Made by a program: the position numbers and the translations under genes. From Candidatus Taenariivivens baikalensis (lineage in GTDB: Bacteria > Omnitrophota > Omnitrophia > Omnitrophales > Aquincolibacteriaceae), in contig SICL01000006.1 in assembly GCA_009691445.1 (NCBI GenBank), positions 2,486 through 66,485 of the forward strand: a DNA stretch of 64,000 nt, read 5' to 3'. How positions within the stretch are numbered: position 1 is the first letter of the stretch; every line of letters starts with the position of its first letter. Shown here one piece after another: positions 7,081-61,587 of the stretch. The notes beneath the pieces are model-generated. The model searched no databases. It worked only from the letters and a program-made list of their open reading frames with translations, and was not told the origin of the DNA.

Positions 7081-7168
7081 AGGAAAAGAGGGGAGAAGGA
7101 AGATGGAAGAGGGAAGAAAAAAAAGCGGTTTTAATCTTCCCTCTTCCATCTTCTTTCTTCCTTCTACA
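7081..7168. repeat. Intergenic hairpin element made of inverted arrays of the heptamer GGAAGAN around an A-rich loop. Member of the heptamer-array hairpin family; may also act as a terminator.
   Basis: aggaaaagaggggagaaggaagatggaagagggaag...cttccctcttccatcttctttcttccttct read directly. Confidence 0.6.
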
Positions 7169-9074: not shown

Positions 9075-9274
9075 GCTGTTCTTTGAGAGGGTGCAAGATC
9101 GCCTAATTTCCTGACCTAGGAAAACGGGAGATGCGTTTTAAGGGTGAACCCCGCAGAAAGCCGAAGGGCTATTGTGGGAAGGGTTACTCTGCAACACTGA
9201 TTGAATGATCAGTACGTCCTTTTTAGTTTTTTGGATTGTCCGAACCCGTGAGCTCATCCCGCAGGCGTGGCAGA

Positions 9275-9327
9275 GAAGCCTTCTTTTATAGTCTCGTAAA
9301 GAGATCATAAAAGAAGGCTTTTTTTTG
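9275..9327 (+). terminator. Rho-independent terminator.
   Basis: agaagccttcttttat...ataaaagaaggct stem followed by a T8 run. Confidence 0.6.
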
Positions 9328-9634: not shown

Positions 9635-10342
9635 TTGATTACAATTCATCCCGCGGAACAACGTGGACATACTCAGTCTGACTGGCTCGACAGTTACCAC
9701 ACGTTTTCCTTTTCGGATTTCTATGATCCCAACCGTATGAGCTTTTGTTCTCTCCGCGTCATCAATGAAGATCGTATTTTACCCACGAAGGGATTTGGAA
9801 CGCATGCGCACAGGGATGTGGAGATTATCACCTACGTGCTTTCCGGATCGCTGGAGCATAAAGATAGCTTAGGGAATGGCTCGATGATTATTCCCGGAAA
9901 GATTCAAAAAATGAGCGCGGGGACCGGCATTCTTCACAGCGAGTGGAATCCTTCCAAGTCGGACCCGGTTCACCTTCTTCAAATTTGGATCGTTCCTGAT
10001 AAAAAAGGACTGAAACCAAGTTATGAAGAACATTCTTTTGATCGTGGTGCGCTCCAGGGTAAGTGGCAGCTCTTGGCATCCGGATCCAAAAATCAGAAAG
10101 TGATTCATATCCATCAGGATACAGACCTTAATGCAACCACCCTTGAAACCGGGCAGATGATCGACTATGCCTTCAAGCCGGGACGCTGCGGCTGGCTTCA
10201 GGTAGCTGGAGGAGACATTACGGTCAACGAAATGCACTTGAAGGCTGGAGACGGCGCCCAGATAAATCATGAAAAAGCTGTTTCGCTGAAAGGGATTTCA
10301 GGACCTGCGGAACTGGTTTTATTTGACCTTGGCATAGGTTAA
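9635..10342 (+). CDS. Pirin-family protein (cupin).
   Basis: GFGTHAHRDVEIITYVLSG corresponds to the pirin HPHRGFE..TY metal-binding motif. 235 aa. Confidence 0.8.
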   Translation: MITIHPAEQRGHTQSDWLDSYHTFSFSDFYDPNRMSFCSLRVINEDRILPTKGFGTHAHRDVEIITYVLSGSLEHKDSLGNGSMIIPGKIQKMSAGTGILHSEWNPSKSDPVHLLQIWIVPDKKGLKPSYEEHSFDRGALQGKWQLLASGSKNQKVIHIHQDTDLNATTLETGQMIDYAFKPGRCGWLQVAGGDITVNEMHLKAGDGAQINHEKAVSLKGISGPAELVLFDLGIG

Positions 10343-13874: not shown

Positions 13875-16800
13875 GTGACTTCTACACGCTCCTATTTTTA
13901 TTCACGGAAATTTCCAAGAAAATTAATTGCATTTCTGACTGCACTTTTCTTCGTCCTTGAAAGTTTTTTTGTAACCCCTCAGACTTGGGCCGCCGCTGTT
14001 CCTTTCGAAGTTCAAGTACCTGCTTCCCTCGATTTAAAACTTTCTCCTGAACTCGGGACAATTGAATCTCTCAAAACCGGTTCTGGACCGCTCATCATTC
14101 ATATCCAGGAAGCACACGGCAATTATGAAACTCAAAAAAAAATCCAGGGTATTTTGCACTCCCTTCACTCTCAGTACGGAATCGATCGCATTTTGCTGGA
14201 AGGCACTGCCTTTAAACTCCACCCAGAACTCGCCCGGTTTTATCCTGAAAATCCCGCACTGAATGAGAAAGTCCTTGAGGCGCTTGCCAAACAGGGAATC
14301 GCAATTGGTCCCGAACTTTTTCTAGCCAAAACTCCGGAGGCCGAGGCGTACGGGATTGAGGATGTTAAACCCTACGTTGCCAATGGCGTTGCCTTTAAAG
14401 AAGTCCTGATTCAAAAAGAGAAAACCAAAAAGTTCCTCTCACTTCTCGATCAGCAGATCAGAGCCTTCAGTGGAACCTACCTGAACGATCCCCTCCGGCG
14501 TTTTCTAGATCGCACGGCCTCGTTTGAGAATCATCCGGACACCTTGAATGATCCGCTGAATATTTTGAAGCTCCAAGCAAAGGAAAATTTGGCGCTTGAC
14601 CTCGAAAGTCCGCTTGCTCAGTTTGACTGGCCGCAGCTGGTGCGTTTGAATGTGCTCGCGGAGATGGAAGGGAAGTTTGAAGGGGGAGCATTTGCGAAAG
14701 AGAAGGAAGCATTTCTTAGAGCAATCAAGGCTTATACGTGGAAGGAAGAAGGAAGAGGGAAGAAGGAAGAAAAAGAGAGAAAGACTTCTCTTCCTTCTTC
14801 CATCTTCTCTCTTCTCTCTTCTGAATTTTCCACTCCCGCCCCCCCCAATCTCGAAACCCAAATGGAATCCCTTGTTTCTCAGCTTCCGAGCGATTTTGAT
14901 TACAAAGCTTATCCCAACGTCAATCGATTCATTGGTCACAAGCTATTAGCCGCAGAGTTAAAAGGAGATGCGCTGCTCAAGGAAATCGAAATACTCACGG
15001 CTAAGATCACGGACAAGCTCGCCAAGACGAAGGAAGAGAAGGAAATCGTTGAGCTTTTGAAATCGTACAAATTGCTGAAGAAGTTATTTGCGCTGGAGTT
15101 AACGGCGGAAGAATATGAGCAAGTGGTAAGCCGTCGGCAGAAGGCAGTCGGCAGTAAAGAGCCGGAGAAAGGCAGTTCTGCCTACTGCATACTGCCTACT
15201 GCTTTCTTGTCCCGATTCGCCGCTCTCAACCATGAAAATCGCATCAAGGACTTGAATTTTCGAGTGGGTTCAAAAATTGACGCTTTGTACGAAAAGGCGC
15301 TGGAGTTTTACCGTCTCGCCAAAGAGAGGGACGGAATCATGATTAAAAATATCGAGAAAATCCTTCGGTCTGAAACCCGAAATCCTAAACTCGAAACTCG
15401 AAACAAATCAAAAATTCAAAATCAAAAATTCGAAACGACACAGAAAAGCAGTTCCGTTTTAGATTTGAATCACTCGAATTTTGAATTTATTTCGGATTTC
15501 GGATTTAGAGTTTCGAGTTTGCCGAAGGCGGTGGTGGTGATTACTGGCGGTTTCCACTCCAAACCCTTTGCAACCTACTTCAAAGATCACGGCTACAGCT
15601 ACGCGCTCATTACTCCCAAAATGATTTCTACGGAAGGTCGCGAGACTTATGTGGATTTTATTCTTAAGAATTTTTCTCCAGCCCAGACTTCAAATTTTAA
15701 AATTGCACCTAGGGTCATGTCAACACCCTCCGAACTCCTCAGCCTTGGTTTCGGATCAAAAAATATTCAGAGAATGCGATCCGAGGTGAGAGGAATTTCC
15801 AAAAAAGACTACGAGAAATTGGCACACGATGCTCGAGATCCACGTGCGCGCCGAGGCTGGGTCCAGCCAAAGACTTCTGTAACGGGCAGACGGTATCACC
15901 GCCGGGGAATCGGCCAAGCGGCTTTCCGAGACCGCTCTCAAGTTCGCTCGGAGCTCAGGACTCAAGGATCTGAACATTTGCTGGCAGATCGAATGACCAA
16001 AGCTTTGCTTCAAGCCGATCCGGATATATCAGGTCAGGCTGGTTTAGATGTTGCTCATATCAGGGGATCAGCGTCTGCAGGTTCGATTCTGAAGGCTTTA
16101 GAAACTTTGAACACTGAAGAGTTTAAGGCCCTTCGATTGGACCTTAAAGAAAAGTTCGAGCAACAGCTTGCAACGTTTGTGGCTATCAAACCTCATGCGC
16201 TTAAGGAAGAGGCTGCCCTTATTGAGGGATTTGTCAAAGCAGGATTTACGGTTCACCTTGGACCCCAGGTTCAATTCGACGAAATCAAAGCCCGTAATTT
16301 TTACCGGGCGCACGCCTTTGAACCTTTTTTTATTTCGCAGCTGCTTCCCGAGATCACAAAAGGCCCTGCCCGCATTTTGATTCTCGAAAGGGCGTTAGGA
16401 AATGCCGTGGCGGAGGCCCGGAAGGTTGTGGATCAAATACGAAGTGACCGGGGAGTGACGAATAAAGATCCGCAAAATTATGTCCACGCCTCTGATGACG
16501 GCGAAGAGGGATCTGCCTGGCGTGAATCTGGAATCGCGGTTTCAACCTCGGAAGAAATTATGGAAAATATTTCTCAGGCTATTGAGGCGTCAGCTCATCC
16601 TTATGATCAATTAAAATCTGCCCAAAGTCTTGTTGCGATAGGTCAGGTTGACCCTCAAGGAAACGGGCGAAAACTTTTAGAAGGTTTGAAAGTTCCATTC
16701 GGTTTTGATTGGGAGCGCGATTCTGTAGCGGCTAAAAAAATCTTAGAACGTGCTCTCGTCATTCCACAAAAACGATCTGAATTAAGGAAACCAGAAGCAA

Positions 16801-22800: not shown

Positions 22801-25800
22801 ATTTACTCGGAATTGCCCAAGAGAAAGCCATCCAGGCATATAGAGCTTTTATGATGAACGACTATGAAAATGCGGCTAAATTCATAAAGGAAGCTCAAGA
22901 AGCGAGCGATGAAGGACAAGCTAAACGCTTAAAGCGTCCTCCGCAGGAACCTCTTTATAATAAGGACGAGGCAATCAAAGAGGCTTTCAAGTCCGCTCTT
23001 AAAGCCCTCGAGAAACTCCAAACCCGTTCGGAAATGCGGAGCGTGTCGATTCCAGATGCGGTGGAGGGACTGAGGCCTGCGATTGCGGAAACGGAAGAGG
23101 TTTGGGGCGGGCCAATGTGGAAAAAAGACGAACTGTTTGATTTTCTAAAACAAAGTCTAGAGCCGGGCCGTAATCCCATTCAAAATAAAATAGTTTCGAT
23201 TTTTGTTCCCCGGGCCGTGGTTCCCAATGAAGCACGGATGGGTCTGACTCCGGCCGGCGTTAAAATCCTTCGAAAGCTTGAAGCCCTTCTGCGAAAAGTA
23301 GATCCTGAAATTCAAATTAAAATTTATGTGGAAGAAGGTTCGGGAGTTAACCGCGACACGGGTGAGACTTATTATTCTGATTTTAATTACAGCCTCGAAG
23401 GAGCTGTTGTGTTGCCTTATGGAGTGTTTGTTGACAAAGCGGGTGCAGTGGGGCCTCATAAAATCGTGGTCGATATTAAGGAGCCGCCGCCAAGCGCGTT
23501 TCCCTTTCTTAAAGACGCTGTTTTATTTACGTTCCTGCATCCTGCGAGTTCTAAAAAAATGACTCAAAAACTGCTTAAGACTGTGAGAGCCGGCTTTGCG
23601 TATGAGAGTATTTTTTTTAAAAACCAACGTCAAGTCGCCAAAGTTCCAATTTTGGATCCGGCCAGCCGCGCGGCAGGTAAGGCAACGGCGGTTCGTTATG
23701 CATCGCTTGTCAAATACCGAAAGGATCATCCAGCCAAGGAGCTCACGGGTTTGGCTTGGCTCGCGGATAAGATCAAATACCTGTTTCTTTTCGTTTTTAC
23801 TTTTGGAAGGGTGAGAATTTCAGAAAGTGATGAGGTTGAGATAATCTTCCGCGAAAATATGAATTTGAAATCGCTAGAGGAAATGAAAAACCTCCAAGGA
23901 ATTCTGGACGGAAAGACGGTCACCATCTTGGGCGGAGGAATTGTCGCTGAAGAAGCGATGCTTTATTTGTCTGGGTTCGGAGCGCGGGTTTATGTGACAG
24001 AGGTCGAAGAAGGACGCAGACAGGAATTAGCCGAACTCATTTCGGGCAAGGAATTGCAGGAAAAGATTACGGTTTTGACCCGGGGAAATCCTAAGCAGCC
24101 GATTGAATTCGAGACAAAAATTAGAGACGCTCTTGAAAACTCCAATGCAATCATTGGAACCATTTCCATTCCTGGTGCCCGCACGCCTATTGAAATCACG
24201 CGGGCTCTCTATAAGAAACTAGTGTCTAAAAAAACGCTGGCAGTGCGAGACGAGAGTAACCATCCCGGAGATGGTCAAGCTAATGCTGAGTTTGCTCGCA
24301 AATTGGAATTTGTCGGCGTGCCTTCGATCGATCAAGGCGGGGATATTGAGGGAGCGCGTCCCGCAAAATTTAAACACGGATGGCTGCGTGACTGGTTTGG
24401 AGTGATTTGGTTTGCGGTGACCAATATACCGTGCGCAGGAGATCCCAGAGAAACTTCTGAAAAAATGCAATTGGCCAAGATGACCTACCTGACACTGCTT
24501 ATTCTAACAGAATTGATGGGTGAGAAATTTTTGCTCCAGGTATTTCAGAAATTTCCGGAAATGAAACCGGGGATGGTGATGCTGCGCGGACATTTGACGA
24601 ATGCCAAGGTCGCTGCTGCTCTTCGTCTGCCGTTTGTCGCGCCGGAGCCCCTCATCGGCTCTCCGGTTCGCTCCGAAGTGCGGTCGTTGAATACCACGGG
24701 GGCGATTCCGGATGCCGTTCGATTTAGCGACTTCCTTCTAAGATTGTTGCCGGAAATCACGAAATCTTTTTCCCGCCGCTCGGAAGTACGTTCTACCGGA
24801 GTGACGAAGCAGGATATGGCTCCCCTGATTTTTTCCAAATTGCTTAAAGGATTTGTGCACAGAACCCAAGCCGAAGCGGGTGACGGAGCGGTTTCTTACT
24901 CGGTGATTCCGGAGAGGGCTGAATTTACGCGCTGGCTGAATATTCAGCAGGCACGAGCCAGTGAGGAATTGATTTTGAAGGGACTGCAAAGCATGGAACG
25001 GGCTGGGGTTTATCTTTATGATGGAATCACGTTGGAAGAGCTTGAGAATCAACACAAATATTATCTGGGTCATGCAACGTCGGTGATTCTTATGACTCTT
25101 GGAGCCGCACTCGGGTTCTGGCGCGTGTTAGAAAACCAGTCTCTCGAAAATGTTCAGCTTGAAAAGCTTGGTCTGGCTACAAACCAGCTTGATTCCTTCG
25201 CAGTTTTTTTAAGGTCTTTAGGGGAAATCTTTAATAAACAGATTTTGCCTACGGGAATTCAAGGGCGTGCATTAGCTGAACAAATGAATGAGATACTTGC
25301 GCGAATGGGGTCTCTGACGCGGTTTGATGTGAATGATCCCATTCACCCGCTTCCTTCTCCGCTGAAAAAAACCCCTATGCCAGAAACGGCGGCGGTTATT
25401 AGTCCTGTGATCCGCATTGAACTTAATGCTGAAAATTATCGCGGTAAAACGGTTCGAGAATTTCTGGATGCATATAGTCCGAAAATTATGTCACAGCTGC
25501 CCGAAGGTTCTGAGTTGTACGGATTTAATACTGTGAATATTGCAGGAAGGATCGTATCGGGTGCTAACAAGCTTGAGTACCAAATCACGGGAAAGAAATT
25601 GGTTTTTTCCTATCCAAATCAAAAGGCACGCTCCGAAGTGCGTAGCCTGTTAGCCCGCGAACCGGTGCACCCGTTAACCAGTATACCGGGCATGGACGAC
25701 GTGAGTTTTTTGACACTACTTAAAGGATTTGATCGCCTCACGCAAGCGGAAGCGGGTGAAGGAGCCGTTTCTTACTCTGTGATTCCGGAGAGTCCTGACC

Positions 25801-28800
25801 TTACGCGTTGGCTCAATATTCAGGAGGCGCGATCCAGCGAAGCTTTGATTTTACACGAACTGCAAATTATGGAGCGAGCCGGGGTTTATCTTTATGATGG
25901 AATAACACGTGAGGAGCTTAAGTATTATCTGGGGAATGAAACGGCGGTGATTCTTATGACTCTTGGAGCCGCGCTTGGGTTCTGGCGTGTTGCCAAAGGG
26001 TCGCGTTTGGAAGATATTCAGTTTAAAAAACTTGGTCTTACCACAGAATACATCAATGCCTTTGCACTTATTTTGCGGAGAGATTTGGCGCGTTTAATCT
26101 CTGATATTGGGATAAACAGGGACGACGGTCAGTACCAAGTGGGAGAATTTTTTTTATATACCAATACAAAAAAAATAAAAGGTGCGGCGATTCAGGACAT
26201 CATTAACCGATCTACGGGGTACTTATTTAGCGCGCTTTTGAAAAAAAGAATAAATCTCCATGAAGAGTTTTCGATGAGAGAGCTTGTCAATCTTCCGGAT
26301 TTTCCTCTGGGGCATTATTGTTTAATCCGTCTCCTTTTGGCGGGTCAAATTCTGGAATACTGGAAAGTAGAAGCGTCTTCGATAAACAATTTTTCAATCC
26401 GCCTTTTACCTGCGGGGCTTGAAATACTTGCTGAACAATCGTTCCAGCAATCTGCGCTGAGGGAGTCTGTCGCACGACCCGAGTCTCCTCAGTCGAGACC
26501 ATCTGAAATAACAACAGTGGCAACCCCGGCGCCTGTCTTTGCGTTTACGCCGCTTCCTCCTAAGCCTGTCCAAATACCTTCTGCGGCGAAACCGGCTGTT
26601 AGCAGCAATGTCATCCGCATTGAACTTAATGCTGAAAATTATCGCGGTAAAACGGTTAAAGAATTTCTGGATCAACATCGTCAAAAAATTATGTCACAGC
26701 TGCCCGCAGGTTCTGAGTTGTACGGATTTAATACTGTGAATATTGCCGGAACGATCGTATCGGGTCATCACAAGCTTGATTGCAAAATCACGGGAAAGAA
26801 CTTGGTTTTTTTCTATCCAAATCCAAAGGCACGCTCCGAAGTAAGAACGGTATTGTTTGATGATAATTTTCAATTTTCCAAGAGGCCTGAGGCGGATGTC
26901 GCTGCAGAAAAGCAGTATGCCGACGCCAAGATCGAAGAATTTAAGACTGTGGTTCAAGCTCAGTTTGGTCAATCGGGTGCAGCCGTGCATGCTAAAGTCA
27001 AGGAAGCCACTGACGCTTGGCTTAACTTGATCAATGAATTTGTGAAGGACCTCGAACCCATATCCGTTGATGATGAAGGAGATCCTCTCTATAAGCGTAA
27101 TGGCACTTATTTACGGATTATCACCTTTGACATTCGCCCGAAGAAACTGTATCAGTTTTATTGGGAAAGATCCAACCCTGAGGGCGAAGCAGACCCTTAT
27201 GAGAGATTTGATTTTTTTGATGTTGCTATTCAAAACGGAGTTATCATTGATTTTTTTCCGTTCACTGATGTGGAGATTATCCGTGGTGAGGGGGGGAGAG
27301 CATCGCGCCAGGACCTAGCTATTTTAGGACAGGGAATTAGTTTTATTGATTTTGAGAATGAAAAGCGAAAAGAGGGGCTTTTTTCTGATCTCCACGCGAA
27401 ATTGGTGGATGAATTTCAGAGAATAAAGAGCCTGCGGGATGATCGGGGACTAGATGTTACCTCGTGGCCAACAGGAAGGGAACCAGATGCTAAGCTCACT
27501 CAAATTCGAAGTCGAATCATAAATTTAAAAAACCAACTCGTTGAAAGGATTGTTTTTCAGGAGGTAGAAAGTGCTGGGCGTATTTTATCCGCATCCGATC
27601 GAGAATTTAATTCAGCGGTTGATATTGCGGTTCTGATGGGCACGATCATCAATCGCTTTCGAAAACTCGTGATGCAAGCACAAGTTCAATCTCTAGATGA
27701 CTTAAGAAAATTAGCCTTTGATATTGCCCCCGAACTTGCGCGTTCGGAAGTGCAAAAAGGGTTAGCCGGTGAACAAGTGCGCGAGTCAACGGGTTTAAAT
27801 CCCGGGCACGCGATTACCCGGTCACCGGCTAAGCCGGACCGTCGCTCGGAATTGCGGAATAATCTGGTGCAGGAATTTCAGGTTATTTACAAGGGGCAAA
27901 ACACAGCAGTGACGGTTCGGGAGATGAATCTTGAAGATCTGGAATCAGGTGAGCATCCGCATTTTGAAAGCGCTCCGCTCTCACAATTACTTAAAACCAC
28001 CTGGATGAGTCGAGGGAAAGACGGTAGAGATCAAACGCAGGAAGCGTACGTGAATCGAAACGGCCAAGTGTTTTTGGAAAACGAATACGGTCTCCAGTTA
28101 TTGGCAGAAAAGGAAAGAGGCGGGAATAAGGGGGATAGTAATTTTGGCAGTATGAGGCAAGATAGGGAACAAGGATTTTTTCAGAGTATTTTGATTCGTG
28201 AAGCCATTATCCTTCTCACCAATCTCCGGGAACCTCCGAAGCCAAAACAGGTTGCTTCTGCCCCTGAAGTTGTCCATCGGAAGTATTCGCCTTTTGGTTA
28301 TCGTGGAGGAAGCGCTCCGAAAGTTCAGCGAAATTTACCTCAGCCGCAAAAACCAGAACCTGTCATTCAAGCTCAAGCGGCAATGCTGGAATGGTTTGAC
28401 GAAGCAGAGAATCGGCACCGGCGTGTCGTGCTCATCACAGACCGCGGCAAGTACCCGGTTGCTCGTGAAGGAGTTTTTGGAGAATCCTCTCCGCGTCCGA
28501 AAGTTGAAACAAATTTTGTGTTTGACCAGGATCGGATGAATCAGCCGGACGATCTTGAAATGCTTCGGGCCCTTGATCTCCAAACGTCAATTATCAAAAA
28601 ATATATTGCCCCGAAAGTATTTGCGGCTGCTCCGCCAGCTCCGAGTCTCGCAGCTGTGGCCGCGGCTCCACCCACAAACCCGAAGCCCTGGCAGACACGT
28701 TTAGCTGCAACTTATGTATCCCAACGCGAGATGGAGGCAGAGCTTTCTGAAGAAGGGCGTTTCTCAGGAGCTTATACGAAAGAGGGAATGTTCAGGTCGT

Positions 28801-31800
28801 CAATTTTTCATGGGAAAGATTTCCAGGAGGGAGTGTTTGTTGAGGGACGCATGAGAGAGGGAAGGCGCGGCGCATTAAAAGAAGCCGGCTTCAACGGAGT
28901 CTTCCACCGGGAAGGCGAATTTTATGTGGGAATTGAAATGCAAATTGATTCAAAGACGGCGCTCATAAAACCAGAAAAGATTCGTGCCATTATTCAAAAG
29001 AAGGATGGCTGGTTTGTTGCCTGTGAAATTCCCTTGATGCTTTATTCTGACGCCGCCAATTCCAAATTTTTTTCTGATTGGGCGGATATTATGGCGAAGG
29101 CGCTTCGCAAACTCGTGCGTGAACATCCACTGGAAAATCAGCCTTATTTTGAGGGCAAGTTACAAGAAATCTTTCCTCCGGCAGTGATGCTGCCCTTTCC
29201 GGAGAGTATGTCTGCCCGCCCGCAGACTTTTCCGGAACAAGTTGTGAGCGACGCGTCTACGATCGAAATTGCTCCCGGATTTTTTGCATTCATCCACGCC
29301 GAACCTCAGGGAGGAGAATACGATCCTTGGACTAGAAGGAGAATTCGGCCAACCCATTATGAATATTCTGTCCGATTCAAGGATCATTTGTCTCGCGCGG
29401 TAGAAAAAAAAGGTTACAACATAAGAGACCGCAGGGAAACGGTTTTGGGTTATCAAGTCACAATAAAGCCGGGAGATAATAATTCTTCTGCCAAAGTCTC
29501 AGCAGTCAAAACTGTGGGACCGGTCGAGGTTCAGCTTTTGGTGGATGGCTCAGAGAAACAGCCAAAGAGGGAAATTCCACCCATAAAGATTAGTTCCCTT
29601 CAAGTGAATCGGTCCAATCCCCAGGATGCTTCCATTTCTTTGGAAGGGAAAAGCATCGCAATAGGCGAGACACAACAAATTGGGCGTTTTGACATTTATT
29701 TTAAAGGCTATGCCCAATCAACTATCGAAGGCGTGCCGCCCGCCGTGATTTTGATCATCCTTCCGCGTTCGGAAGTGCGAAAAGGGTTAGCCGGTCAGCG
29801 AGTGAACCTGCCAACGGATTTAAATCCCGGGCACGCGATTACCCGGTCACTCGTTAAACCGGATCGGCGGTCGGAAGTGCGATCCACTCCGCTGGTTTCA
29901 GATCAAAGCAGGGATGTCTCCAAGGCTTTTATTCCTCAAGCCTTTAAACCCTTTTATTTTTATGATCGGGAAAGAAGACCCTCCGTGGAGTCTCAAGTCC
30001 CTGCTTCAGTTTTTCTTTTGGATCCCAGGGTTGATGCCTCGTTAAATAAAAACGAAGCCCACGGTGTTTTTCTCAAGCTAAAATCAAAGGGAGACCGAGT
30101 TTTGATTTATGATTATCACGTCACGCCAAATCCCTATGGCCAAACGGCTGAAGAAATTTCAAATCGTAGTGCTTATATCAACCATCTGGAAGTGAACCTG
30201 GATGAACATGGTCACTTGGAATCATTTATGATCCACAAGGGAGACCTGAGCCGCCACAGGCGTCATCCCTGGATTTTTGGAGATGTGGAAGCGTGGTTAA
30301 GTGCCCAGAAAGGAAAGCCATTCAATATTTCGAATCCTGAATTTCCGAAACAGATTCAACCCGGTGCAAGGAGATTGCCCGCAGTTCCGCAAGCGGGCAG
30401 GGTCAGGACGATGGACGCTAAAAATCCTAACTGGGTTACTCCTGAAGATAGTGGACTTGAGCTTCTCGTCAGCCGATTGGGAGATCCCGCGCAGCCTGTT
30501 GTTTTCAATCGTCTGCAGCAAATGCAGGAAAAGATTCTTGAAATGGGACCCGTGGCCTGGTCGTTTTTACTGGATCTTTATCCCTCGTTTACTCGCCAGC
30601 CCAAAATCCAGCAGGAAATCAAAATGATTCTTCTTCAGGCCGGACCCGCGGTTATTCCGGTGCTGCAAGGCTATATTGATCACCGCAGAGAACCCCAGGC
30701 AGTTTTGGCAACGGAACTCTTGCATCAGATCAATCCATTTATTGTCGACGATCACGCCGAATCGCCCATTGCACATATTTCTGAAATGAATTTGCCTCTT
30801 CCCTCGAATCTGGAACCCGCGAATTTGATTGTACTCGGAGGAATGGGAGCTGTTGCCCAAGTGTTTTATGAAACGCACATGAAAGCGTTGGCCCAGCGTT
30901 ACGGAGTGACATTGACGGCGGTGGACCTGATGCCGCAGGATGCTGCGCTCGCAAGAATCAAGGCTGAAAACCTTCCTTATCAAACTTACATCCAGGTACC
31001 GAATCGTCCATTGAACGGGCCGGAAACAGATTTTATGAAACAACTTCTAGCTCAGAATCCCAAAGGGGTTTTGATCCTGACCCGTCCCAACTCTCATCTG
31101 GATTTTACAAGATGGGCACTGAATAACGGGATCAAAGCTTACGTGGAAAAACCTTTTTCTCTTCCCGAGGACACTGTTACGATGGCAAAGCTTCACGAAC
31201 GGTTTGAACGGGCTATTTTTGCCATCGATTTTTTCTTTGATAATGAATCGGCCTTGAAAGGTTTTGAAATGTTGCAATCCAATTTCTTCGGAGATCTTGT
31301 TTCTATCAAAGGCAGCATGATCGAAAGCAATCTCATTGAAAACGGCAGAGGCTGGCTTGTGGACCGAAAAATCAATGGCGGAGGAATGGGGCCGGACATG
31401 CTGGTCCATTTGGTCGCGTTAGCGGAACTTCTTTTGACCAAATTCAAGCCATCTTCCGATCCTTCCCGGCATTTAAGTCTTGAGCAGTTTAAACTGGATT
31501 ATCAAAAGAGCAAACAGTGGCGTTACCGCGGAGCACCGAAAGGCCAGGAGACTTACCTTCATGCCATCGGAAATCTTGGACATGTTCCCGTGGATTTAGA
31601 TGCCGGCAAAGGCCTTCATGAGTGTGCGTATTTTATGATCCTTCAAGGAACCAAAGGAACGCTTGAGATTAATCTTGGAAATCACAAGAAAAATCAAAAA
31701 CCTTTCTTGGAACTTCGCTCGCGCAGCGGAGAAATTGTCTATCACGAAGATTTTGGAGCGGATATCGGTTACGCGGGTGCGGTCCGGAAAATTTTTGAAC

Positions 31801-34800
31801 ATCTTCAAGACCAAAAAAGGCCAGATGGAAAGCCGGCGGTCTCAGATCGGGAGCTTGATTTCCGGGTGCGTGCGGTCAAAACCTCCGTGGATTTGGTAGA
31901 TAAAGTAAACGGCGCGCTCGGCGGCGAATTTTTTTATCATAATGCCGGGCAGAATCCCGCGGAACTTTCGGTGCCTGAAAGAGTGGGGGAACGGGCAAAC
32001 CGTCTGATGCCTCTGCAATCGAATCTGATCAATCCCGTGACCCGCGAAAAAATGCAGATTCGCCGCCAACCCGGAGGAGACGCCTACCGTCATTATTATG
32101 ATTTGTACCGATCTTCGCAAGGCGATCTGCGATTCGAGGGAGTGACGATACAGCTGCTTGCCGACTCGTTACTGGTTGATAACTTAAAAATTCCTGCGAT
32201 TCAAGGATATCGGGAAGACGGTTATGCCATTCCCATTTTAAAGTGGGCGCTCGAGCTTGCCCAAAAAATTTATCCGGATTCAGAGTATCCTTTACTGATT
32301 TCTCAAGACGACGTGACGATGCTGCCGGTGCTTGACGGTATTTTTGACCCGGCGTCGATTGAGCTCCGAAATAATATGGATGGAACCTGGGGGCATCTCA
32401 AAGATCCAGCCTTCAATTTGTATCATATTTTCGGAGGTTCTTACAGCCGTGAGCCCAAAGACGAGGGCGCGATTATTCTTGCCGACCCTCAGTCTTATTT
32501 CCCTTTGGGAACGGCCCAAATCCGTAAGCAGGGTGAAAATTATTTGCTTGTTTCTTCAAGTCTTCCCGCCGCCTCCATAAAATTTCAAGGGCCTTTGATC
32601 CGGGCTTCTTATCGAGGAAAGCCGCTGCGCATTATTTTCCCTCATCAAACGATGGCGATTCGCGGTCTCCCTAAAAAGTGGGATGCCGACGCGGCCGCGG
32701 TCACACGCCGTTTGGAATTGCCGGCAACACTTGCTGAGATTAATATACTTATTGACGGAGGGAACATCGTCGATGCCATTCGATCATTTACGCGCAGTAG
32801 AGCCTCTTTAGATTCTCAATCTGTGAACATGATTGCCGAGCGTCTCAGGCAATCTTATTTGGATCCGCTTGTCGTTGTAGGGAAACTGGGAGGCACTTCG
32901 ATGGCTTTTGAGACTGCGTCTCCCTACGGACTTCTTGGATACCGCAATTCATCCCCGACAATCACGAAACCGGACAAAGCGGATACAGCCGTAGAAGTGG
33001 TTGAACGGATCGTGAAAACGATTTTGGATGTGATGAAGCCTTATGTTGAAGAAGATCCCTCAGCAATCAATCGATTTATGGCGATTCGTTTTAGCGCACC
33101 CGGTTATTTTGATTCGGAAGGAAACCTGATCGAGGATGAAGAAAATATCCCAAAAATCAAGGCCGGATTTAATTTCAGCAAGGAAGTTTTTCAAGCCTTA
33201 ACGAGCGCGCTTCAAAGGAAGGGATGGACCCGCCACGAGTCTCTTCCTCCGATCGAAGTCACTGTCGAACATGACGGGACAGCCGGAGCACGTGGGGAAA
33301 TCTCCGAGTTTGGGACTTTTCCAGGTGACGGCGATCTTTTTTTTCTGATCGCAGGCACAGGCATCGGAAGCAGGCGCTTTAAGGATGGAAAACCTTTTTT
33401 TGGGGATAAGCGCGTTCAGGGGCTGGCGAATGAAGGTCCTCATCACCTCCAGTTTAATGAAAGCAAGGAGCATCCGGATTTTGCTTACCGCGCTCTTCAA
33501 ACCCAAGGCTTTCCTATTAAACGGTTCAAACCGGGGCATGCCCGGCAAATCCGGGTTCCAAACCTTGAGGAAATTTTGCAGTACGGGCCTCATTTGATTG
33601 ATCTTGAGGATTTAACTTCCGGACCCAATATTGAAAAATATGCCGCGGAAGTTTTGAGAAAATTTAATCAGCATAGCGAGCATAACGCTGAAAAAGCTGA
33701 GCAACGAAAACTCGCTTTCGATATTTTAAACGAAGTCGGCTTCAATTTTGAAAGTGTTTCCACAAAACTGCTTGGAGAAAAAGCCAGAGCCGGAAATACA
33801 CTTGCCCAGAGAATCATTCGGCAAAGGGCGCGTTTGCTTGGGATTGGTTTAGCGGTTATGTTGGTTGAACAATATAAAGTCTTTGGAGCGGAAGAATTCG
33901 GAATTCCGAAGCATGTGATTCTTGGGTCCGGAGTTTCCCAGCTTGGTTCTGTTTTTCTGGATGCGGTCCGGGAAGGTTTTAAAGAAAGGCTGGATAAATA
34001 TTATACTGCCCGTCAGGAATATACCTTTGACCCCCATAGGCAGATTGTTCTTTCCAAAGTGATGGACGACACCGGCCGTGAATTTTACGGATTTCTTCCC
34101 ACCCCAACCGAAGCAGCGGCCTACAAACAAAAACTCGGATCTCTCTCACGTTCTGAAGCGCGGATGGATCGACGCGATTTTATACAATCCTTTATCGCTT
34201 TGACTGAAAGTGCTGTCTCTTTGGGCGCGGCCTTGGGTATTAGTTATTTGATCATCCTTCCGCGTTCGGAAATGCGAAAAAGGTTAGCCGGTCAGCGAGT
34301 GAACCTGCCAACGGATTTAAATCCCGGGCACGCGATTACCCGCTCACCGGCTAACCCTGACAGACGCTCGGAAGTGCGGGCGGTCAATACGGAGGGAGCG
34401 ATTCCGGTCAGGTCGTTTGATCTTTCTGCAAACCCCTCCAGAACAACCGAGGCAGGACTTTATCTGATCCGGCGTTTAGGATTACTCCAGACTTCAGTGG
34501 TGCCGCTTTTCCAAGCTATTCTAAAGAAAGAGGATCCCGATCCAGCCGTGGAACTGCTTGTGACAAGCCGGGAAGGTCTTTTCTTACAACCTCCCTCTGA
34601 TGAATTTATGACGGTGAGAAGGTTGAGTGGGCGCGATTCGCTTTACCGTCTGGATCTGAAAGATAAAACCATCACGCCTTTGACCTTTCCCGGCGTGTTA
34701 AATCCTTTCTCTGACGGAAACGGAAAACCCTTTGCACCGCTTACGCCTTTTCCTGCGGAACAAGGGGCTGTGCATTTTGCCCTTGTGGATAGAGATCTCA

Positions 34801-37800
34801 AACTCTGGATTTTGAATCCTTATACCGCGGCAGTCGTCAATCACGATTTAAAACTTCTTGCCGAACAACGGCACAAAGTTGTTTTGGATCCTACAAATCT
34901 GGATTCCATAAGTATCCGCCAGGCTTCAAGTGAAAATCTGATGGTGGTGATTCGCCCGACAGTCAAGTTGTGGGACACTGCCCCAAAATGGCCGATTCCG
35001 CTTTATTTTTCCGCAAGGGATGGAAGTGAATTACCGAGAGATTCTGGATATAGCCCTGACGGTGTTGACAGGATTTATTTATGGAGACCTTTGTACGACC
35101 AAGCGCGTCACGATCTTCGATCCCGTTTTGATTCCGGGAAAAAGGATATTTCCGTGACCGTCCAGGTTTCTGCGCTCACGAGTTCTGCCTTAGCAAATCA
35201 TCTTTCTGTGGAATGGCGTGCCCCAAACGGCGTGTGGGTGGAGGGATTTCTTCCGACTGCGTCCATTCCCGGAGCCTCAAAGGCTCATGAAAATCTTCTT
35301 TATCAGAATCTGAAGGTTTATCCAGGTAAAATTCATAGCGACCATTTTGTTTTTTTTACCGAAGGGCCTAAATCCGAAATTGCGAGTGAATTGGAAGCGC
35401 TATCGTCAGGTCAAAGGACGGCACCCGCCATTCCACCGCGCGTTTCTCCTTTTTATGAAAGTGAACCGGATTTTAGCGTCCACTCTTTTTCCAGAGAAGG
35501 TTATGAATCGGCAGCCGCTTCTCAAACCAACGAAGGGGTTTTAGCGGAATTGACAGATGCGCTCAATCAATTTTCGAACCGGGTGATTCTTGTCGAAGTT
35601 ATCGGAGCTTCGTTTAAAGGAAATGGTTTGAATGTGATTTATCAGGGTGTGCAGGGATTTATTCATAAAAATCATTTAAGGGGATCAGTAAGTGACTACC
35701 CGCGTGGAAATCATATTTCTGTTTGGGTCATGACGGTTGACCGGACTCGGAATCCGTCCCGGCCGTTCGTGCAGTTTTGTGAAGTCCACCCCCGTTCTGA
35801 AGTGCGGAATTCAGGGGTATCACCGCAGTCCGATAGTGATGGAGTTTACCGGGAATTACAAGCAATGGATGCTTTGGGTCTGGATGACCGGCCATACCTG
35901 AGTGTGCAAGTCCTTGGAGTGAGTCGAAGGGGTACGGGTGTAAATGTTGAATATAAGGGAGTACCAGGATTTATTTTATACAACCTTCTTAAGAAACCTG
36001 TGCGTGAGTATCATCCTGGAGATTTCATTGATGTAATTTTTCACAGTATGAAACAGTTGCGGAATTCTTCGCGTCCATTTGTAGAATTTTGGGAACGCCA
36101 GCAGGAAGGAGGATATCGTTCCGAAGTACGCTCCGAAGTGCGCAGCCTGTCAGCCCGTGAACTGGTGCACCCGTTAATCGGTACACCGGAAACCGGCGCA
36201 CAGGCTAACCGGAATACGCGTTCAGAAGCGCGGATGGATCGACGCGATTTTATACAATCCTTTTTCGCTTTGGCTGAAAGTGCGGTCTCTTTGGGCGCGG
36301 TCTTGGGTATTAGTTATTTGATGATCCTTCCGCGTTCGGAAGTGCGAAAAGGGTTTTCGGGACAGCGAGTGAACCTGCCAACGGATTTAAATCCAGGGCA
36401 CGCGATTACCCGGTCACCCGTTAAACCGGATCGCCGATCGGAAGTGCGTTCTGCTTCACCAAAGCCTCGCATCCTTGTCATTGAAGTGAATGCTGCCTTG
36501 TATCGAGTGGCGGAGAAAAGCTTCGGCGAAGTGTTTGAGGCTTTAAAGTCAGAAATTGAAAAAAAGCTGCCACTTGGCGTGAATGTTGGGAATTTCGTTT
36601 CGATGACAGACGGTAATGTCGTTGTGATGGGTAGCAATGATTTGCTTGTGCGTCAAAGAAATTTTTCTAATCCATTTGGGGGCGCCAAACTGACAGTTCG
36701 CTACGCAGATCTTCGCTCGGAAGTCAGGAGCTTAGGAATCCATTCGGCAACGCAGATTGTTCCTCATCTTGGAAAGTTTGATGGAGCTTTGACGGCAAAC
36801 GTTAACCACCACTCTCATCGGCACTCTGATGATCATATCGCTCTGAAAGACGGCCGGTTGATCACCGTTCTGGTCGATGATGAGCCGTATAAAAGATCCA
36901 TTGATTTGACTTTGACGGACCCTGACGACTTAAGCAAACTCTACGTTAAGGTTCGCAAGGTTGAACAGGCGGGTACGTGGGATGTGTTATTAGCTGACTT
37001 ACGGGAAAATGTCACTTCGATGATTAACAAGTCTGATTCGCTGGGTGAGGTTGCGAAGAGCCTGACGGCACTTAATCTCGCACGTTATCAATCCAAGCAG
37101 AAGTCTATTCTCTATGTGGGGACGTTTTATCAAATAGATGAAACCCTCCGGCCATTTGCCTTAATGATTAAGGATGGTTTGACAGAAAATCAACTGAGGT
37201 TCAATTTTAATTTTTCGAATCGAATGATTGCCGATGAAAATGTTTCGAATCCCTTAAAGATTCCATCGATGTGGAGTACGGAGAGTGTTTTCAAGATCAA
37301 GTTGAAGGTCAGGGAAGAAAAGATTTCGTCGGGTAAAATGCCGGTACTGGCTATTATGCGATTAAAAGCACCCTCTTCTCATTTGTCAGATATCCGGGCA
37401 CATTTACAGCAGCTGGGAATTCAGTATTTGATGCGGGCCGAAGTTTCTTATGCCGACGGCACTAAAATAGATCTGGAGCCTCAGGTAAGGGTGGCCAGCC
37501 TGGAAGCCTTGCGGAATTCTCCTTTTGATTCAAGTGTCCGTAAAGTGCTGGGGCAGTTGAAAGGGTTGCGAAGTCTAGCGCTTGCGGCAAGAAGCGGCAG
37601 AACTGACGGATCACTTTTGGATGGATTGGAACGTTCTGAAATTCGGACGGACTTGCCCGTTCAAGAATTTGAGGATCAGGGGCAGTTGATCAGCCGGATT
37701 TTCCGGCAGGGGATTGTACCGCTGGTGAAGATGGGCGAGGCCGCCCGTGCGTGGGTGGTAGCTGTTTACGGAAAAACGAAGACGACAGCGAGGGAATCGT

Positions 37801-39589: not shown

Positions 39590-39764
39590 AAAGTTAAACT
39601 TTATGCAACAGTACTATCGTTTAGTTATTTTTGTTTGGTGAACCCAGGATTACCAAGATTTACGATTGCGGGAAGGCTATCTGGCAATGGCAGAAGAAGC
39701 ACGGAAGCTGCTTGAGGAATTTAAATATGCGGATGAGGAATCTTTGAAGTCTATAGATTTGCAA

Positions 39765-39890
39765 TGACCAAGAAACAAGATCCAAGAAACAAACAAAGAG
39801 CCAATCTTTCAATTTTAAAATTTCAATAAATTGTTTTAGATATTGGAATTTGAAGATTCCTTGGTTATTGTATCTTGGTGTTTGGTCATT
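39765..39890. repeat. Intergenic heptamer-array hairpin element (CAAGAWA/CCAAGAW arrays inverted around an AT-rich spacer), copy 1 of 4.
   Basis: tgaccaagaaacaagatccaagaaacaaacaaagag ... cttggttattgtatcttggtgtttggtca. Confidence 0.6.
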
Positions 39891-39960
39891 CTAGTTTGGC
39901 TTTTAAAATCTCAGTTGCTTGGGGTGATCTTCAGTGGTATTCTTCCTAGTGGAGGAAGTG

Positions 39961-41629: not shown

Positions 41630-41643
41630 ATACCAAAAATGTA

Positions 41644-41760
41644 ATAACCAAGATACAAGAAACAAGATACAAATAAAGATACAAAAAAACAATAAACCAA
41701 TCTTTGAATTTTTGAAATCTTGTTATTTATTTGGACACTTGTATCTTGTCTCTTGGTTAT
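41644..41760. repeat. Intergenic heptamer-array hairpin element, copy 2 of 4, between cusB-like and cusA-like genes.
   Basis: ccaagatacaagaaacaagatacaaataaagatac ... tttggacacttgtatcttgtctcttgg. Confidence 0.6.
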
Positions 41761-53140: not shown

Positions 53141-53191
53141 AATGAATGGATCTCCGACACAGGATTACGTCAGAATGGGTAAGAGACTTAA

Positions 53192-53322
53192 ATAACCAAG
53201 ATCCAAGAAACAAGTATCCAAATAATAATCAAGCGACAAGATGCAAGTGTCCAAACAGTTTGTCATTTGTAGCTTGCTTCTTGGAGATTTGGTTATTATT
53301 TGGTGTTTGTATCTTGGATCTT
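53192..53322. repeat. Intergenic heptamer-array hairpin element, copy 3 of 4.
   Basis: aaccaagatccaagaaacaagtatccaaataataatcaagcgacaagatgcaag ... cttgcttcttggagatttggttattatttggtgtttgtatcttggatcttg. Confidence 0.6.
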
Positions 53323-59254: not shown

Positions 59255-59554
59255 ATGTCGGAATCTCAAAAGACAAAGAAATATGCAATGCTGGCCGCTT
59301 CGATCGCCGGAATTATGGCGGTTTGCGGAACCGTCTCTTTAGCGTATGCGGATGATATGGCGATGGACAGCAAAGACGGAGTGTCCTGCTACGGGGTCAA
59401 TGCCTGCAAAGGTCAGGGCGCTTGCGGCGGCAAAGGTCACGGCTGCGCGGGTGAAAACAGCTGTAAAGGAAAAGGCTGGATCAAAGCGGAAAATAAAGAA
59501 GCTTGCCTGAAAATGGAAGGCGGAAGTTTGAAGCCAACGGCCATCACGGACTAA
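59255..59554 (+). CDS. DUF2282-family Cys-rich precursor peptide (bufferin BufA-like).
   Basis: Signal peptide, then VSCYGVNACKGQGACGGKGHGCAGENSCKG (the CYGV..C..G..C pattern of DUF2282). Immediately upstream of a DUF692 gene. Confidence 0.6.
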   Translation: MSESQKTKKYAMLAASIAGIMAVCGTVSLAYADDMAMDSKDGVSCYGVNACKGQGACGGKGHGCAGENSCKGKGWIKAENKEACLKMEGGSLKPTAITD

Positions 59555-59555
59555 T

Positions 59556-59672
59556 AACCAAACACCAAGAAACAAGATCCAAATAATTCCAAAATTTCAA
59601 TTTTCAATAGGAGTGGGAATTGGATATTGATTATTGGATTTTATTTGGAGCTTGTAACTTGTATCTTGGTTA
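59556..59672. repeat. Intergenic heptamer-array hairpin element, copy 4 of 4, between the precursor peptide gene and the DUF692 gene.
   Basis: aaccaaacaccaagaaacaagatccaaataattccaa ... ttggattttatttggagcttgtaacttgtatcttggtt. Confidence 0.6.
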
Positions 59673-59679
59673 TTAAATT

Positions 59680-61383: not shown

Positions 61384-61587
61384 GTCTCTTCCACTACTTA
61401 CTTCCTAAATCGTTTTACCTGCTCCTGATTTCTGCCTAGGTTTAGCTATCTAATGCTATAAATTGATAGTCAAAACAATACAAAGTTCTATGTTAGTTGA
61501 AATAGTATAAAGCTGAGGGTAACTTTTAATAGGACAGCTGTGCCTAGCCAATAAATAAGTACGCACGTAACCTGAGTTGGAGGAAGT

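Follow-up and report, generated by a model that had tools for sequence, protein, structure and literature searches.

Introduction

Rickettsia palindromic elements (RPEs) are palindromes, about 100-150 bp in length, which lie in frame within open reading frames (ORFs) and add peptide to the encoded proteins (PMC10969869). By description, the repeat considered here, which we call module M, is like RPEs and intragenic MITEs (miniature transposable elements with inverted repeats); it is palindromic, falls in the same size range of about 100-150 bp, lies in frame and adds peptide. It occurs in four copies within one giant gene on contig SICL01000006.1 of Candidatus Taenariivivens baikalensis (GenBank assembly GCA_009691445.1); the host of this gene is an Omnitrophota bacterium. 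The window is the whole 64,000-nucleotide stretch that was analysed, positions 2,486 to 66,485 of the forward strand of that contig, and all coordinates below refer to it. A first-pass annotation of the window had noticed the four copies and likened them to in-frame insertions of the RPE type.

Two other classes of system bear on the gene that carries M. Viral polyproteins, and the MARTX toxins with their autoprocessing cysteine protease domain (CPD), are polyproteins that undergo proteolytic processing; and polymorphic toxins have a single junction motif in front of a C-terminal toxin, VENN in CdiA and DPxGL in Rhs. Giant proteins are, moreover, on record from the Omnitrophota. One survey (Nielsen & Lui 2026, bioRxiv 10.64898/2026.06.07.730766) describes a 'multi-enzyme metabolic cluster' class in this phylum, in which there are many enzyme Pfams and none dominates, and Omnitrophota giant proteins also figure in the survey by West-Roberts et al. 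2023 (bioRxiv 10.1101/2023.11.21.568195).

The giant gene examined here strings together some 27 modules that are unrelated to one another, with an RSE[V/L/M/A/I]R pentapeptide at every junction. Against this background we read M as a duplicated palindromic junction spacer in a bacterial polyprotein, flanked by sites that are candidates for processing, a reading to which we assign a probability of roughly 0.6 and in which cleavage is inferred.

Results

The giant ORF (13875-38423, + strand; from the ORF list and its translation) is 24.5 kb long, encodes 8,182 amino acids and houses all four copies of M. It opens with a hydrophobic helix (hydropathy peak at residues 17-35), followed by a conserved N-terminal domain and then by the modules, which are delimited by 27 in-frame RSE[VLMAI]R separators between 15777 and 37646 on the + strand, taken from a motif listing and set against a composition-based expectation. 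Their first bases lie at 15777, 15945, 16773, 17280, 17853, 19578, 20859, 22269, 23025, 24669, 24777, 25629, 26832, 27843, 29766, 29868, 34149, 34263, 34365, 35793, 36117, 36129, 36219, 36333, 36435, 36714 and 37632. Composition alone would lead one to expect 0.06 matches; there are 26 non-overlapping ones, each in the frame of the gene, and their codons are restricted, Ser being always TCN and the first Arg always CGN. Cut at the separators, the ORF yields about 27 segments, between 34 and 1,427 residues long, which were compared with one another by BLASTP and which include whole enzyme-like units (NDK-, DapA-, NagB- and AlaDH-like). Pfam matches to NDK, DHDPS, Glucosamine_iso, AlaDh_PNT and GFO_IDH_MocA each fall within a different segment, and in no case does a separator lie inside a Pfam domain. 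Some modules have kept an initiator methionine of their own: four segments begin with Met right after the motif, and the DapA-like segment starts with Met, its residue 28 corresponding to position 20 of the DHDPS profile. A further motif, RSETR at 15366, lies within a palindromic insertion described below and is probably not a true separator.

Some internal paralogy exists besides that of M. Segments S13 and S14 (24792-26846) are paralogous modules with 44-66% protein identity; the tail of S21 and S22 (35508-36131) are further internal paralogues, and an S1-like pair is 41% identical. At the nucleotide level, the 58-nt stretch that opens S14 (25632-25689) is 88% identical to that opening S23 (36132-36189).

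The pentapeptide is shared by a whole family of such genes. When one genome per GTDB species was scanned, 204 relatives were found (best identity 43%), all from metagenome-assembled genomes (MAGs) that are labelled Omnitrophota or are unnamed and uncultured; in a protein-collection search the N-terminal 634 residues had homologues in Omnitrophota alone, with RSEVR or RSELR directly after the domain. The separator follows the N-terminal domain in 80 related Omnitrophota loci (L001-L080). In 82 family ORFs with 220,000 amino acids, R[SA]E[VLMAIT]R motifs occur 495 times against about five expected, and at a density of 2.25 per 1000 amino acids against 0.13 in neighbouring ORFs. The flanks of the family motifs are linker-like, with A/S/T/P upstream and S/T/A followed by E/D downstream. 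In L052, segments bounded by separators are filled by full-length NagB and 2-hydroxyacid dehydrogenase (2-Hacid_dh) domains. The giant ORF of L004 was also seen to contain, at residues 728-800 and right after a RAEVR separator, a complete CsrA-like protein with its own Met (MLVLSRKVSETIVIGGGEIKLTVVEIRGDRVRLGI...).

The coding of the separator is biased throughout the family. CGY encodes the first Arg in 82% of cases (background 45%), whereas AGR does so in 3% (background 23%); TCN makes up 95% of the Ser codons (background 68%), GTG is the main codon for Val, and the last Arg has no bias. This bias might possibly come from recombinational copying of the junctions or from a constraint at the level of RNA. 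The starting CGC of the separator is complementary to its terminal GCG, and flanking motifs pair together in many predicted folds. Two other explanations of the motif were tried and rejected. It is not an internal start codon with a Shine-Dalgarno sequence, because the fourth codon is ATG, GTG or TTG in only about 40% of cases and may also encode Ala, Ile, Thr or Leu (CTN); nor is it part of a CRISPR-like array, the repeat being 15 nt long and in frame, with spacings from 12 nt to 4.3 kb.

One of the family loci, L066 (CAYWRU010000006.1), is a syntenic orthologue of the window, with pirin, PEGA and GT2 genes upstream that are 40-67% identical to those of the window (GT2 67%). Its giant ORF, followed to residue 3,916, shares with ours only the N-terminal domain (33-41%) and an NDK-like module (26%). 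Since almost no modules are shared, module content must turn over far faster than the neighbouring genes, with the separator being retained.

As for M itself, the four in-frame copies of about 115 bp that had first been reported were recovered by a repeat finder, as a family of 123-nt units at 27735, 29760, 34257 and 36327 with 80-85% identity to the reference copy; so was the fusion of a second module, X, to the upstream side of two of them, as a 230-nt composite at 34149 and 36219 (90%). M consists of 29 residues and a trailing separator. Over 117 nt, with both flanking motifs included, pairwise identities are 0.84 (A-B), 0.85 (A-C), 0.80 (A-D), 0.89 (B-C), 0.92 (B-D) and 0.86 (C-D), a range of 0.80-0.92 that lies slightly below the earlier estimate of 85-95%; the two copies of X are 94.6% identical. 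All copies of M are on one strand, in one frame and in one gene. Copy A (27741-27857, +) is the diverged one, in which the 5' motif has decayed to RSEVQ and the peptide has become KGLAGEQVRESTGLNPGHAITRSPAKPDR, with EQVRESTG in the middle in place of QRVNLPTD. Copy B (29766-29882, +) reads RSEVR-KGLAGQRVNLPTDLNPGHAITRSLVKPDR-RSEVR. Copies C (34263-34379, +) and D (36333-36449, +) follow X, which occupies 34149-34262 (+) in the first case, reading RSEAR and then MDRRDFIQSFIALTESAVSLGAALGISYLIILP and forming the hydrophobic segment S19, and 36219-36332 (+) in the second, with a hydropathy peak of 1.68. The peptide pattern that had been proposed for M describes copies C and D, fits B except for Leu in place of Pro (RSLVKPDR), and does not describe A. 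The idea that X is a twin-arginine translocation (Tat) signal was dropped; the likeness of RRDFIQSF is by eye only, and at E <= 1 there was no match in NCBIfam, in which the inclusion of a Tat model is unconfirmed.

The 14-nt repeats CGYTCGGAARTGCG that flank each copy are present, with 0-1 mismatches. Were M a mobile palindrome of the RPE or MITE type, its copies would represent four in-frame insertions at RSExR-coding targets, each with duplication of the target, and it does have the in-frame position, the length (about 115 nt), the palindrome and the direct repeats on both sides that this would entail. However, the flanking repeats are separators (eight of the 27 in-frame sites) and not target-site duplications; the same RSExR occurs throughout the gene and the family, including some 19 junctions of the giant gene where there is no M, and so it does not mark insertions as had been supposed. 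Nor does the homologous unit end at the repeats. Past the 3' motif the copies can no longer be aligned, but at the 5' end the homology of copies B, C and D continues for about 20 bases beyond the motif (TTTGATCATCCTTCCG, coding ...LIILP), which are the tail of X. The 5' motifs also match across copies (0-2 mismatches) more closely than any of them matches the 3' motif of its own copy (1-4 mismatches). Because the 5' motifs are alike and the upstream tail is common, we conclude that X and M were duplicated inside the gene, and not that M inserted four times. We therefore regard mobility of M as improbable, all the more so as its copies share strand and frame and the ORFs of the 64-kb window include no transposase or integrase.

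Searches further afield agree with this. Neither M nor X was found elsewhere in the 64-kb window on either strand, in the 80 family loci (tblastn and blastn), or by a word-indexed search of 5.8 billion proteins; a degenerate-codon scan of metagenome contigs of the Joint Genome Institute (JGI) gave two chance matches only, and when 1.84 billion representatives were searched exhaustively with HMMER profiles, two spurious tandem-repeat proteins were all that came up. Three public contigs carry an identical downstream gene, and all of them end inside the giant gene at about 35870-36680 of the window, near X and M; these repeats probably fragment short-read assemblies.

The copies are recent paralogues, as the high identity had suggested, with synonymous divergence (dS) of 0.2-0.4 among copies of M; between the copies of X it is 0.07. 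When B, C and D are compared, dS ranges over 0.21-0.41 and replacement divergence (dN) over 0.04-0.09, giving a dN/dS of about 0.2 that is built on only 9-17 differences per pair, with pairs sharing branches; dN for copy A is 0.16-0.18. A ratio of this kind tells further against a mobile M and is in favour of our preferred reading, as it is of a second alternative, namely that the repeated peptide of M is an ordinary one with a job at the level of the protein, its palindrome being incidental and RSExR an uncleaved linker or docking motif. Such a job might possibly be that of a positively charged, Pro/Gly-rich loop fixing the topology of the preceding X; M has a net charge of +3, and three of its four copies come after a hydrophobic ...(I/M)ILP stretch. 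The first-pass annotation had itself named what would indicate a plain protein repeat, that is, confinement to this gene, ordinary protein-level divergence and loss of the dyad symmetry. The first two are what we observe within the data searched, and the third applies to half of the copies, the hairpin having decayed in B and D while the peptide was kept. The M peptide has, nonetheless, no homologue in the protein collections searched, the palindrome also counts against this explanation, and we consider it unlikely.

M is an imperfect palindrome of about 75 nt. Its dyad symmetry, noted from the outset, goes beyond chance and is strong in copies A and C, but it is eroded in B and D. Copy C has the best palindrome, with 19-nt arms (34282-34300 and 34338-34356) that are 89% complementary, and in copy A the arms are TTAGCCGGTGA (27762-27772) and TCACCGGCTAA (27822-27832). 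The CCCGGG...CCCGG mini-hairpin that had been described in addition does not form a feature of its own; folding predicts the palindrome GGATTTAAATCC as the centre. With a DNA profile of M, the reverse strand of each of the four copies is matched (E = 1.5e-6, 9.4e-5, 1.2e-4 and 0.013). When 627 windows of 117 nt along the gene are ranked by stability, four of the top five overlap copies A, B and C and the single most stable one, at 34272, lies in copy C. Copy C folds with -47.3 kcal/mol (z = -3.9) and copy A with -47.8 kcal/mol (z = -2.5), while B (z = +0.6) and D (z = 0.0) do no better than shuffles; against synonymous codon resampling, C (p = 0.005, z = -3.0) and A (p = 0.04) remain significant and B and D do not. 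If the hairpin of copy C is mapped on all four copies, 88% of pair cells are kept, against 16-47% in slid controls. From the fold, profile and pair-retention statistics together it follows that the ancestor of M was strongly palindromic, which counts against an incidental palindrome, and that the palindrome has not been maintained in every copy.

The same figures invite a third explanation, in which an RNA or DNA hairpin is the functional object and the peptide a passenger insulated by two processing sites. The hairpin might possibly act as a ribosome pause, as an RNase or stability element in a 24.5-kb mRNA, or as a recombination junction for module shuffling. Such a role is favoured by the stability of A and C, which rank near the top for this gene, also when synonymous resampling is the comparison; the codon bias of the separator suggests constraint at the nucleotide level, and the fast turnover of modules, of which almost none is common to the syntenic orthologue, would suit a shuffling junction. 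Against it, the four sequences contain a single compensatory pair in the M hairpin, and 256 of 500 shuffles did as well, so that covariation is lacking; M matches no Rfam family at gathering thresholds, where the sole match in the window is a riboswitch located elsewhere; half of the copies fold no better than shuffles; and the excess of synonymous over replacement changes indicates constraint on the peptide rather than on the structure. We consider this explanation the least probable of those weighed here. An integron origin was rejected outright. The attC consensus is an imperfect palindrome with core sites RYYYAAC ... GTTRRRY and an IntI integrase nearby; M reads GTTAGCC ... GGCTAAC, which is the inverse order of core sites, and no tyrosine recombinase occurs among the window ORFs.

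Hairpins are not peculiar to M but recur at the junctions of the family. We compared 42 short (18-60 residues) inter-separator segments with 76 length-matched windows from the long segments of the same ORFs, and a fold z-score below -3 was obtained for 24% of the former and 1% of the latter (Mann-Whitney p = 0.0017 for z); minimum free energy per nucleotide was -0.316 against -0.247 (Mann-Whitney p = 1.6e-5). Long stems that are close to perfect occur in several short segments, those of L052, L004, L005, L009 and L039 among them. The spacer sequences are lineage-specific and often repeated within one gene. GC-rich hairpin cores are, on the other hand, common to distant genomes, with 93-97% nucleotide identity, and occur there in different frames or at different protein positions; window positions 63450-63483 are 97% identical to 15161-15194 of L035 in another reading frame, and a (GGGGAAC)x3 hairpin is found at 7238 of L039 (inter-separator), at 10460 of L031 and 5532 of L078 (both in the N-terminal domain) and at 1874 of L034 (- strand). 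These observations bear on all three alternatives. Hairpins in unrelated short segments of other genomes would go unexplained if the palindrome of M were incidental to a repeated peptide; their enrichment between separators suits a hairpin with a function of its own; and both the enrichment and the sharing of hairpin pieces across frames by distant genomes count in favour of a mobile M.

Some details of L052 may be recorded alongside. Its repeated inter-separator peptides include SSLRTESTTGAV (four times) and I(T/I)GSKPGFESRGPEAENRVLDS (twice, with an 18-bp perfect stem), and its giant ORF also has repeated acyl-carrier-protein-like modules. The starts of two segments in the window, RSEVR-SLNTTGAIP and AVNTEGAIP, resemble SSLRTESTTGAV.

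The window does contain elements that conform to the RPE description, and to these the first comparison properly applies. Strong inverted repeats number 12 in it, where shuffled sequence gives about 1.7. Two in-frame palindromic insertions interrupt the N-terminal domain of the giant ORF (+ strand), and both are missing from homologues: one at 14735-14825 (KEEGRGKKEEK.../...SLPSSIFSLLSS), where the predicted local distance difference test (pLDDT) of a structural model is low (residues 294-305), and one at 15360-15535 (ILRSETRNPKLETRNK...FISDFGFRVSS), directly before a TGGFH motif, where pLDDT is below 50 (residues 501-550). An intergenic hairpin of the GAAGGAAGA type at 7087-7165 is about 78% identical over 74 nt to the first insertion (14741-14814). 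The second (peptide ...RNPK.E.RNK...SNFGFR.S) has one relative in L069 (10845-10990), which is in frame but elsewhere in that domain, and another in L045 (8765-8900), non-coding and with stops in all six frames. Both the 7087/14735 and the 15360 elements therefore behave in an RPE-like manner, having copies in frame as well as in intergenic or non-coding DNA. That other palindromes of this genome occur in both settings is a further point for a mobile M, yet M itself has no copy outside one gene in the data searched.

The conserved N-terminal domain (13875-15776, +) has an EreA/ChaN/TraB/TIKI-like fold and is the candidate for the processing hydrolase. An AlphaFold model has a pLDDT of 70.5, and residues 605-634, which adjoin the first true separator at residue 635, are predicted to be disordered (pLDDT 26-29). 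An [IL]Q[TED]AHG motif is kept in 66 of the 66 family sequences that matched the search pattern and is followed at fixed spacing by [LVIM]EG, and TGGFH is kept in 82/82. These motifs we take to resemble the GxxH / Glu / GxxH catalytic pattern of the superfamily, a likeness without sequence-profile support, and no match to a named family was obtained in Pfam, NCBIfam or PDB sequences. As sequence profiles give no support, the domain is best described as a hydrolase candidate and not as an identified protease.

A second, paralogous giant ORF begins near 61576 and runs off the window end at 64000 (+). It has the same N-terminal domain (VLVQDAH...IAGGFH), with the separators RSEVR (63715) and RSEAR (63808) after it. 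In-frame palindromes are present in this ORF at 62854-62933 and 63421-63529. Directly upstream of it, at 59680-61383 (+), is a MbnB/TglH/ChrH-type enzyme for the modification of ribosomally synthesised and post-translationally modified peptides (RiPPs), fused to DUF2063. A further family of hairpin repeats (TAATAACCAAGAWMCAAGAAACAAG...), mostly intergenic, is found at 59545-59680, 41640-41760, 39755-39895 and 53180-53310, with a related piece in L040. The riboswitch mentioned above is of the cyclic di-AMP (c-di-AMP) class (RF00379, 54 bits); it occupies 9090-9282 (+) and lies upstream of a pirin-family gene (9635-10342).

Discussion

In proposing how M arose, and what the giant gene encodes, we start from two properties that the ORF shares with polyproteins: it holds several independent units in one reading frame, and it has a conserved short site at each junction. 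In our preferred reading, that M is a duplicated junction spacer of a polyprotein, the four copies arose by segmental duplication within the gene of M together with the tail or the whole of the hydrophobic X, after which B, C and D diverged, mainly at synonymous sites. Proteolytic processing would take place at the RSExR separators, where the modules would be cut apart either by the EreA/ChaN/TraB/TIKI-like domain at the N-terminus or by some other protease. M might then be released as a small, basic, Pro/Gly-rich peptide, or stay behind as a linker after the hydrophobic X. Its palindrome would be a relic of the hairpin-forming DNA found at module junctions, or one of that DNA's properties, and may serve as an mRNA hairpin, in ribosome pausing or mRNA protection, or may simply be selfish DNA that is tolerated.

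Several points weigh against this reading. RSExR is a candidate cleavage site only, and no Arg-specific protease was identified. Separator DNA is more uniform than the peptide demands, which could point to a role at the level of RNA or DNA; the dN/dS of M, as noted, derives from few and partly dependent differences; and M is confined to one gene within the data searched, while further copies may lie elsewhere in the complete genome.

A wider proposition, which we put forward tentatively, is that these giant proteins are true polyproteins, built by in-frame gene capture at the 15-nt, five-residue RSExR, cut by the TIKI/TraB-like hydrolase and shuffled at their junctions by palindromes. If capture and shuffling at RSExR were to occur, the near-total difference in modules between syntenic orthologues would be explained. 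Hairpin spacers and in-frame palindromic insertions may in any case contribute to the rapid turnover of modules.

Whichever way M is read, the RSExR separator and the hydrolase-like domain at the N-terminus outweigh the M repeats in importance. The separator bears on whether Omnitrophota giant proteins act as single chains or get cut; a junction pentapeptide that is family-wide provides concrete candidate cut sites, and a rational basis for splitting these proteins for structure prediction and annotation. With the separator and a hydrolase-like domain in the same protein, processing of giant proteins is directly testable. The accessible parts of the two Omnitrophota giant-gene surveys, and of the phylum-wide study by Seymour et al., contain no mention of a junction motif or cleavage sites, and a full-text literature search for RSEVR or RSELR returned unrelated papers only. 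Nor do the accessible parts of Nielsen & Lui 2026 or West-Roberts et al. 2023 describe the hairpin spacers or the conserved domain at the N-terminus, and a literature search for palindromic, hairpin or MITE terms together with Omnitrophota had no Omnitrophota paper among the ten highest-ranked matches.

The comparison with RPEs thus has two outcomes. RPEs are dispersed over many unrelated genes and intergenic DNA, whereas M has four copies in one gene, at equivalent junctions bounded by separators; and unlike in RPEs, the unit duplicated in M extends past its flanking repeat, and no copy exists elsewhere in the searched data. The other palindromic elements of this genome suggest, however, that 'selfish DNA in coding sequence' of the RPE type extends beyond Rickettsia.

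The 'multi-enzyme metabolic cluster' proteins, as characterised in the accessible part of that survey, are similar to the giant ORF in their Omnitrophota origin, in the many enzyme Pfams that tile one polypeptide and in their frequent internal repeats; at 8,182 amino acids the giant ORF falls below the 10,000-residue cut-off of the survey, which is a threshold of size only. With viral polyproteins and MARTX toxins it has in common independent units in one ORF, a short junction site and a hydrolase-like domain in the same polypeptide. It differs from them in that its candidate protease is EreA/ChaN/TraB/TIKI-like and neither a CPD nor 3C-like, in that its modules are enzymes of housekeeping type, in that its host is a free-living or episymbiotic bacterium, and in that its cleavage is inferred. 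The junction motifs of CdiA and Rhs offer the remaining parallel, since in both cases a short conserved peptide, together with its coding DNA, marks the boundary at which modules are exchanged and may serve recombination as well as cleavage; but the toxins have one junction per protein, while the Omnitrophota giant ORFs have dozens, placed between enzyme-like modules.

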